NCBI RefSeq assembly: GCF_024223415.1
Contig: NZ_CP100500.1
DNA from: Escherichia coli
GTDB lineage: Bacteria; Pseudomonadota; Gammaproteobacteria; Enterobacterales; Enterobacteriaceae
DNA: 64,000 nucleotides
Strand: one strand, 5' to 3'
In this document: one piece after another, positions 44,326 to 44,739 of the stretch
Numbering within the stretch: position 1 is the first letter of the stretch
How the letters are laid out: every line of letters starts with the position of its first letter
Translations under genes and position numbers: made by a program
The notes under the pieces: generated by a model
The model's database searches: none
What the model was told of the DNA's origin: nothing
Seen by the model: only the letters and a program-made list of their open reading frames with translations

Positions 44326-44739
44326 AAGAAAACATCCCCTGAGAGTTTAATTTTCGTCAAGATGCGTGGCGGACAATCCCCTGCCAGCGAAACGTTATCT
44401 TCCTGCTCCAGGTTTGCGACAATTTGCTGCGTCGCAAAAAAGCAAACGTTTAGCTCCGCGCATACAAAACGGGTGGTAAAAAAAGCAAACGATTATCCGG
44501 CGATCATAGCGGCTTTTTCAACCGAAGTTTGCTGCTTTTTTCTCTTTTATTGTCTTGACGATGAAAAACCAGGCAATTGATGCGCAAACGTTATCGTCGA
44601 TGCGCAAGATTGCAGCGTTAGCGAGCCGTATACCGTTCTGGATTGCGATAAAAAATCGTCTGAGATGACAAAAATATTGCGGCTAAAAAGTATACTTTTA
44701 CACTGGCGAAGAAACGCCGGTGACATACAATTAAAGCAT

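Follow-up and report, generated by a model that had tools for sequence, protein, structure and literature searches.

Most pur promoters carry a single operator near the core promoter; purR has two, and the purR and purB operators located downstream of the start site reportedly act as roadblocks. The pur operators of Escherichia coli, such as those of purF, purT, purHD and purMN, are 16-bp imperfect palindromes with a central CG, ACGnAAACGTTTGCnT, which PurR, with hypoxanthine or guanine as corepressor, occupies in the promoter regions of purine genes (Cho et al. 2011). One of the boxes discussed here, O3 at the ghxP gene (yjcD), is itself listed in the table of that study. Toxic and mutagenic purine analogues enter mainly through GhxP (PMC3809563).

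The connection between PurR and ghxP has been described repeatedly. In the ChIP-chip data of Cho et al. 2011 (PMC3159470), a PurR region named ryjA/yjcD showed a log2 ratio of 2.08 with adenine and no listed peak when adenine was absent, and the motif assigned to it is O3; this region spans 630 bp, a resolution at which the three boxes of the locus are not separable. Sastry et al. 2019 placed ghxP in the PurR-1 iModulon and listed O3 as its upstream motif. Rodionova et al. 2021 described adenine as repressing ghxP through PurR, gave xanP and ghxP as fellow members of the PurR-1 iModulon, and mentioned an action of RbsR at some purine genes. Kozmin et al. 2013 cited PurR-dependent repression of ghxP and mentioned, as unpublished data, that the analogue HAP lowered its expression 4-fold. 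The supplement of PMC4576408 contains O1, a PurR site from comparative genomics, at -130 among its PurR sites, concordant with RegPrecise and not singled out as novel, and the same work proposed an element at -76 as an additional, novel PurR site. The PurR-ghxP link was thus published before, as were the boxes O1 and O3, and both PurR binding at ryjA/yjcD and the purine repression of ghxP also appear in regulon collections; all this is already known. Since this regulation had been published, finding the motifs is correct yet ordinary. Among the papers searched, no report was found of O2 as a PurR site, nor of an EMSA or footprint of purified PurR on each separate box.

The ghxP locus

The window, that is, the whole stretch of 64,000 nt analysed here, is a part of the E. 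coli chromosome in which ghxP, the small RNA RyjA/SraL and soxR follow one another:

42976-44325, minus strand: ghxP (yjcD, b4064) coding sequence, an open reading frame of 449 aa with its start ATG at 44325
44738-44878, plus strand: RyjA/SraL small RNA, matched by Rfam RF01408 with 153 bits and annotated in K-12
44871-45335, minus strand: soxR, open reading frame

The product of ghxP is annotated as the guanine/hypoxanthine transporter GhxP. Of 5426 complete genomes, 5420 contain positions 44300-44900, with soxR and ghxP as the features annotated under the match. Being located on the plus strand between ghxP and soxR, RyjA is divergent from ghxP and convergent with soxR, and the preliminary description of this DNA erred in calling the small RNA convergent with ghxP.

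The gene content between soxR and ghxP differs among genera. In Escherichia, a GST gene is absent from 44598-44870, which holds RyjA/SraL only. The three Erwinia loci carry a GST gene with Pfam domains in this interval, on the ghxP strand, and according to the sequence alignment the same apparently applies to most Enterobacteriaceae.

PurR-like boxes upstream of ghxP

On the plus strand, GCAAACG occurs at 44442, 44485 and 44584, 116-272 bp upstream of the ghxP ATG (44325, minus strand). The positions of the three copies given in the preliminary description hold; its wording of the motif as (a/g)GCAAACG(t/a)T does not fit copy 3, which is preceded by C, neither A nor G. Counted over the 64 kb, the heptamer is about as frequent as chance predicts (22 matches vs 18.3 expected), and of 1000 Markov simulations of the window only 0.5% produced three same-strand copies inside 160 bp. 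That first list lacks a fourth element, of AACGTT type and weaker, which lies at 44386-44401.

The PurR matrix was 16 bp long and built from 27 motifs that Cho et al. give in their Table 1 (PMC3159470), with the yjcD site omitted; its training sites score 12.1-25.4 bits. In the scan of the 64 kb on both strands, copies 1 and 3 (O1 and O3) ranked first and second with 19.4 and 18.6 bits, O1 being the best match of the window, and the third-ranked match anywhere in the window reached 12.9 bits. At 17.5 bits or above, 0.08 matches are expected per 64 kb vs 2 observed, both at the ghxP promoter region. The scores of O1 and O3 fall within the range of the training sites, and both boxes are 16-bp imperfect palindromes with a central CG. 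Copy 2 (O2) is weak, its 10.7 bits lying under the weakest training site (12.1 bits), so that by score it does not class as a PurR site; matches of at least 10.7 bits are nevertheless expected by chance just 0.03 times in the intergenic region upstream of ghxP. The likeness to the PurR operator proposed earlier is therefore borne out for copies 1 and 3 and remains weak for copy 2. The purine repression of ghxP suggested along with it agrees with the PurR ChIP-chip peak seen with adenine and with the published PurR-dependent repression.

44582-44597, minus strand: O3, distal PurR box (copy 3), ACGATAACGTTTGCGC on the ghxP strand, 18.2-18.6 bits, -110 to -95
44483-44498, minus strand: O2, weak PurR-like box (copy 2), GGATAATCGTTTGCTT, 10.7-11.2 bits, -11 to +5
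44440-44455, minus strand: O1, leader PurR box (copy 1), AGCTAAACGTTTGCTT, 17.6-19.4 bits, +33 to +48

O3 has the same sequence as the ryjA/yjcD motif of Cho et al. and as the site given in the supplement of Sastry et al. 2019. O2 has one good half-site, and its right half-site lacks the consensus GC; it reaches 13.4 bits in genera with AGATAAT and agrees with O1 at 16 of 17 bases, TAAnCGTTTGCTTTTTT. All three boxes carry the better half-site, of the PurR-type GCAAAC, on the same strand.

Promoter and start site

A single sigma-70-like promoter was found in 44250-44950, TTGAAA-18-GATAAT, running from 44521 to 44492 on the minus strand:

44516-44521, minus strand: -35 hexamer TTGAAA, from the sigma-70-like promoter scan
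44492-44497, minus strand: -10 hexamer GATAAT, from the same scan
44487 (+/-1 nt), minus strand: ghxP transcription start site from SMRT-Cappable-seq, giving a leader of 162 nt

The start site derives from the b4064 operon, 4278317 to 4279876, which appears in both listings of the SMRT-Cappable-seq supplement (PMC6131387). It was transferred via NC_000913.3 (ghxP ATG at 4278479), K-12 aligning gap-free to the window. This published site confirms the promoter; it falls 5 bases past the -10 hexamer and within O2, which overlaps both elements. The same transcript (K-12 4278317-4279876, window about 42928-44487) stops 48 nt past the stop codon, and a read-through variant over ghxP and yjcE (b4064|b4065) is also given. 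A second promoter at O3 was rejected because an acceptable -35/-10 pair is absent and SMRT-Cappable-seq gives a single b4064 start site. UTP-sensitive reiterative transcription at the T-run past the start site was likewise discarded, as the T-run is unconserved and Enterobacter has GCCTAAATTTG.

Conservation and spacing of the boxes

Comparison of 80 ghxP loci from Enterobacteriaceae, with column identities computed on 69 distinct loci, showed all three boxes in about 70 Enterobacteriaceae loci or species, in constant order and orientation. Mean column identity reached 0.99 in O3 and 0.96 in O2; the 83 bp separating these boxes averaged 0.72, and the sequence farther upstream 0.62. GTTGAAA and GATAAT were invariant in the 69 loci and the 18-bp spacer between the hexamers was variable, as is typical of the phylogenetic footprint of a promoter. 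The O1 core TAAACGTTTGC was invariant over the aligned genera, save that some loci have T in place of A at two of its positions.

In 69 of 70 loci, and also in strain ESL0689, the distance from O3 to O2 is exactly 99 bp, and the 83 bp between these boxes contain no indels. Two positions of this interval, G 44574 and C 44560, are invariant; they are 15 bp apart with a T-rich centre. The distance between O2 and O1 ranges from 42 to 205 bp because insertions land just past the start site. Insertions of about 45 to 160 bp were observed between O2 and O1 in 16 loci and in the multiloop of the leader domain described below in seven, one locus being in both groups, and the helices and box 1 are unbroken in all insertion-bearing loci.

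Outside Escherichia, the 3' end of the same-strand GST gene is directly upstream of O3. As O3 stays beside ghxP even where the GST gene replaces RyjA, O3 travels with ghxP and not with RyjA. Erwinia keeps O2 and O1 and has no O3, because only about 80 bp separate the end of its GST gene from the promoter. ESL0689 has retained O3, which scores 21 bits, and O2, which scores 12.7 bits; O1 and the structured leader are absent from it. In Mangrovibacter, the CGTTTGC part of O2 is lost and GATAAT is kept. The conserved flank of O3 includes one further element:

44601-44607, minus strand: near-invariant TTGCGCA just upstream of O3, invariant in a 17-genus alignment and of 0.99 identity in the 69 loci

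A conserved TGTTGC follows a few bases beyond it (44601-44616); comparison of this TTGCGCA/TGTTGC flank with the PurR matrix and with promoters gave no match. Two loci of the comparison bear unexpected labels. One carries the label of a Bacillota MAG; its GhxP shows 100% identity to the query, and its leader stretch is the same as in the window. The other, labelled Chryseobacterium sp. and carrying insertions at both places mentioned above, has a ghxP locus of the Enterobacteriaceae type; these contigs are probably contamination or mis-binned.

A structured ghxP leader RNA

The leader downstream of the start site contains a domain with the following elements:

44360-44465, minus strand: structured leader RNA domain of about 105 nt, from covariation, RNAalifold and single-sequence folds
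44465-44457 with 44369-44360, minus strand: P1, long-range helix of GUAUGCGCGG with CCACGCAUAC, from RNAalifold
44455-44445 with 44396-44386, minus strand: P2, the O1 transcript paired with the -76 element, from RNAalifold
44438-44431 with 44420-44413, minus strand: P3 hairpin, UUUGCGAC...GUCGCAAA, from alignment inspection and the E. coli fold
about 44385-44368, minus strand: P4, a small helix, from alignment inspection and the E. coli single-sequence fold
44386-44401, minus strand: the '-76 site', AAGATAACGTTTCGCT, at +87 to +102, 3-7 bits with the PurR matrix

RNAalifold was run on 19 leaders and pairs were counted on 69 sequences. Standard pairs occupy 88.8% of the cells, vs 30-51% when the partners were slid by 1-3 columns. 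Changes on both sides were found at 18 of 32 pairs (6-12 in the slid controls) and in 141 cells (19-38 in the controls), and none of 500 shuffles reached the observed values. P1 contributes both-sided changes at 8 of its 9 pairs and P3 at all 7; at columns 29/101, a pair of P2, 25 sequences have C-G and 24 have U-A. When folded as single sequences, the leaders of Salmonella, Enterobacter, Klebsiella, Mangrovibacter and E. coli yield matching helices. The E. coli leader is not unusually stable (minimum free energy -42.7 kcal/mol, z-score 0.07), and the support for the structure is covariation only, not thermodynamic stability.

A covariance model of the leader gave one match in the window (156.8 bits), 147-149 bits in held-out loci, 88-132 in insertion-bearing loci and 56-59 in Erwinia. 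In an Rfam 15 scan of 44200-44950 with E up to 1, the leader was unmatched, and SraL and two sub-threshold chance matches were the only results. The element is single-copy per E. coli genome, nothing is annotated under it in RefSeq E. coli genomes, and no paper on yjcD was found that links the gene to sRNA control, a riboswitch or CsrA. The leader structure appears to be new. We suggest only tentatively that it is an undescribed conserved cis-acting RNA domain of the Enterobacteriaceae, recognisable in Erwinia, which may add post-transcriptional control of ghxP. If so, it would provide a second layer of control via stability, translation, or metabolite or protein binding.

Several other readings of the leader were considered. 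A paralogous copy in E. coli was rejected, the element occurring at one place per genome. A leader peptide, the 22-codon open reading frame from the ATG in GTATGCGCGG, was dismissed because the ATG is AAG, CTG or ACG in other genera and its variable positions covary as helix P1. Motifs like CAGGGGAU, which resemble CsrA sites, occur at 44330-44345, at the Shine-Dalgarno sequence, and at 44371-44385, in P4. CsrA binding at them was set aside since ghxP has no CLIP-seq peak in Potts et al. 2017. The same study gives ghxP, xanP, adeP, codB and tsx all as 'activated by CsrA', a grouping that makes the effect of CsrA on ghxP probably indirect.

The '-76 site' covaries with O1 as the opposite strand of P2, so its most likely role is to pair with O1 in the RNA, not to serve as an operator, and it looks operator-like only because it is complementary to the palindromic operator O1. 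O1 is far more conserved than this partner, which suggests an added DNA-level constraint on O1. Conversely, because O1 also supplies one side of an RNA helix, PurR may not account for all of its conservation.

Alternative explanations

That the GCAAACG motifs are clustered PurR operators of the ghxP promoter is very probable, and O1 and O3 are supported as such operators. The place of O2 in the cluster is less certain, and it is entirely possible, short of probable, that only O1 and O3 are PurR operators and that O2 is kept as the -10 hexamer, discriminator and start site, its GCAAACG not being bound by PurR. O2 scores 10.7-11.2 bits vs 12.1 for the weakest training site, it covers both GATAAT and the measured start site, and Mangrovibacter retains the -10 hexamer without CGTTTGC; the conservation of O2 could stem from -10, discriminator and start-site functions alone. 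However, CGTTTGC (-4 to +3) is invariant in nearly all loci, Erwinia and ESL0689 included, and such invariance is not normally needed by a discriminator. The agreement of O2 with O1 at 16 of 17 bases, and the mere 0.03 chance matches expected at its score in the intergenic region, also argue for a PurR box over the promoter. An origin of the AACGTT-type repeats in the structure of the leader RNA, without protein binding, would explain the covariation-backed helix between O1 and the '-76 site', but it is unlikely for the set as a whole: O3 wholly and O2 mostly lie upstream of the start site and cannot act as RNA, O1 is much more conserved than its pairing partner, and PurR occupies the region in vivo.

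Two further readings accept protein binding and change either the target or the regulator. The preliminary description had offered the small-RNA promoter as a possible target, and control of RyjA/SraL instead of ghxP, above all by O3, could be read from the ryjA/yjcD label of the ChIP-chip peak and from O3 being the box closest to RyjA (44738-44878). The O3 centre is, however, 148 bp upstream of the 5' end of RyjA, which is transcribed away from ghxP. The 99-bp distance between O3 and the promoter is also kept where the same-strand GST gene, not RyjA, adjoins upstream, so that this reading is highly improbable. Use of the sites by another LacI-family regulator with a related half-site, RbsR or CytR, has hardly any likelihood either. 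The half-site CAGCGAAACG at 44386-44395 resembles the rbs operator, but its CGAAACG form is confined to few genera, with TAAACG or TTAAACG elsewhere, and an RbsR-like reading of the '-76 site' was rejected because this half-site is unconserved. An action of RbsR at some purine genes has been mentioned (Rodionova et al. 2021), yet the three main boxes have the PurR-type GCAAAC half-site.

Proposed mechanism of repression

For the preferred reading, a cluster of PurR operators, the roles assigned to the individual boxes, the binding of PurR to O2 and the part played by O3 are what we infer. When the corepressors hypoxanthine or guanine are plentiful, PurR dimers would occupy the strong boxes O3 and O1, and probably the weak box O2 as well. 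PurR at O2 would block the binding of RNA polymerase or open-complex formation at the -10 hexamer and start site, and at O1 it would form a roadblock to promoter escape or early elongation, an elongation block being the natural model of repression for a box in the transcribed leader (+33 to +48).

The invariant 99-bp spacing suggests that O3 may act in a fixed geometry with the promoter. At about -103, O3 is not in the position expected for a direct block of polymerase by a dimeric repressor. PurR is a dimer without a tetramerisation domain, and DNA looping is therefore not expected. O3, fixed 99 bp from O2, may instead provide extra occupancy or a spacing-dependent interference with an upstream promoter element, for which the candidates would be the positions G 44574 and C 44560 and a stretch rich in A between about -58 and -38. 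Because GhxP imports the corepressors of PurR, repression of ghxP amounts to direct negative feedback.

Comparison with known systems

The novelty that remains at this locus is the three-box geometry and, above all, the structured leader. Three conserved boxes are set here against a measured start site, the earlier papers found giving one each; their strict 99-bp spacing calls for explanation; and a fourth, predicted 'PurR site' is placed as the likely RNA pairing partner of O1 within a conserved structured leader. If the leader RNA acts together with three phased PurR boxes, this promoter would be unusually elaborate for the pur regulon. Since GhxP is both the route of analogue entry and an importer of corepressors, the tightness of ghxP shut-off matters for analogue sensitivity and purine homeostasis.

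Compared with the pur operators, the ghxP promoter differs in having three boxes spread from -110 to +48. The location of O1 in the transcribed leader is shared with the operators of purR and purB, whereas ghxP adds a box over the promoter and a far-upstream box, and the transcript of O1 is part of a conserved RNA helix. The closest relatives in function are xanP, adeP (yieG/purP), codBA and tsx, nucleobase or nucleoside uptake genes that are likewise bound by PurR and follow the same logic, in which salvage transporters and de novo synthesis are repressed together when purines are plentiful. These genes have been reported with one motif per peak, in contrast to the three boxes of ghxP, and GhxP differs from the other uptake proteins in importing the corepressors of PurR, which closes a direct feedback loop. 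A conserved structured leader before a hypoxanthine/guanine permease gene is also found in Bacillus subtilis, where pbuG carries the purine riboswitch (RF00167); the ghxP leader has no sequence or structure match to that family, and its long-range P1 encloses P2-P3 and P4.
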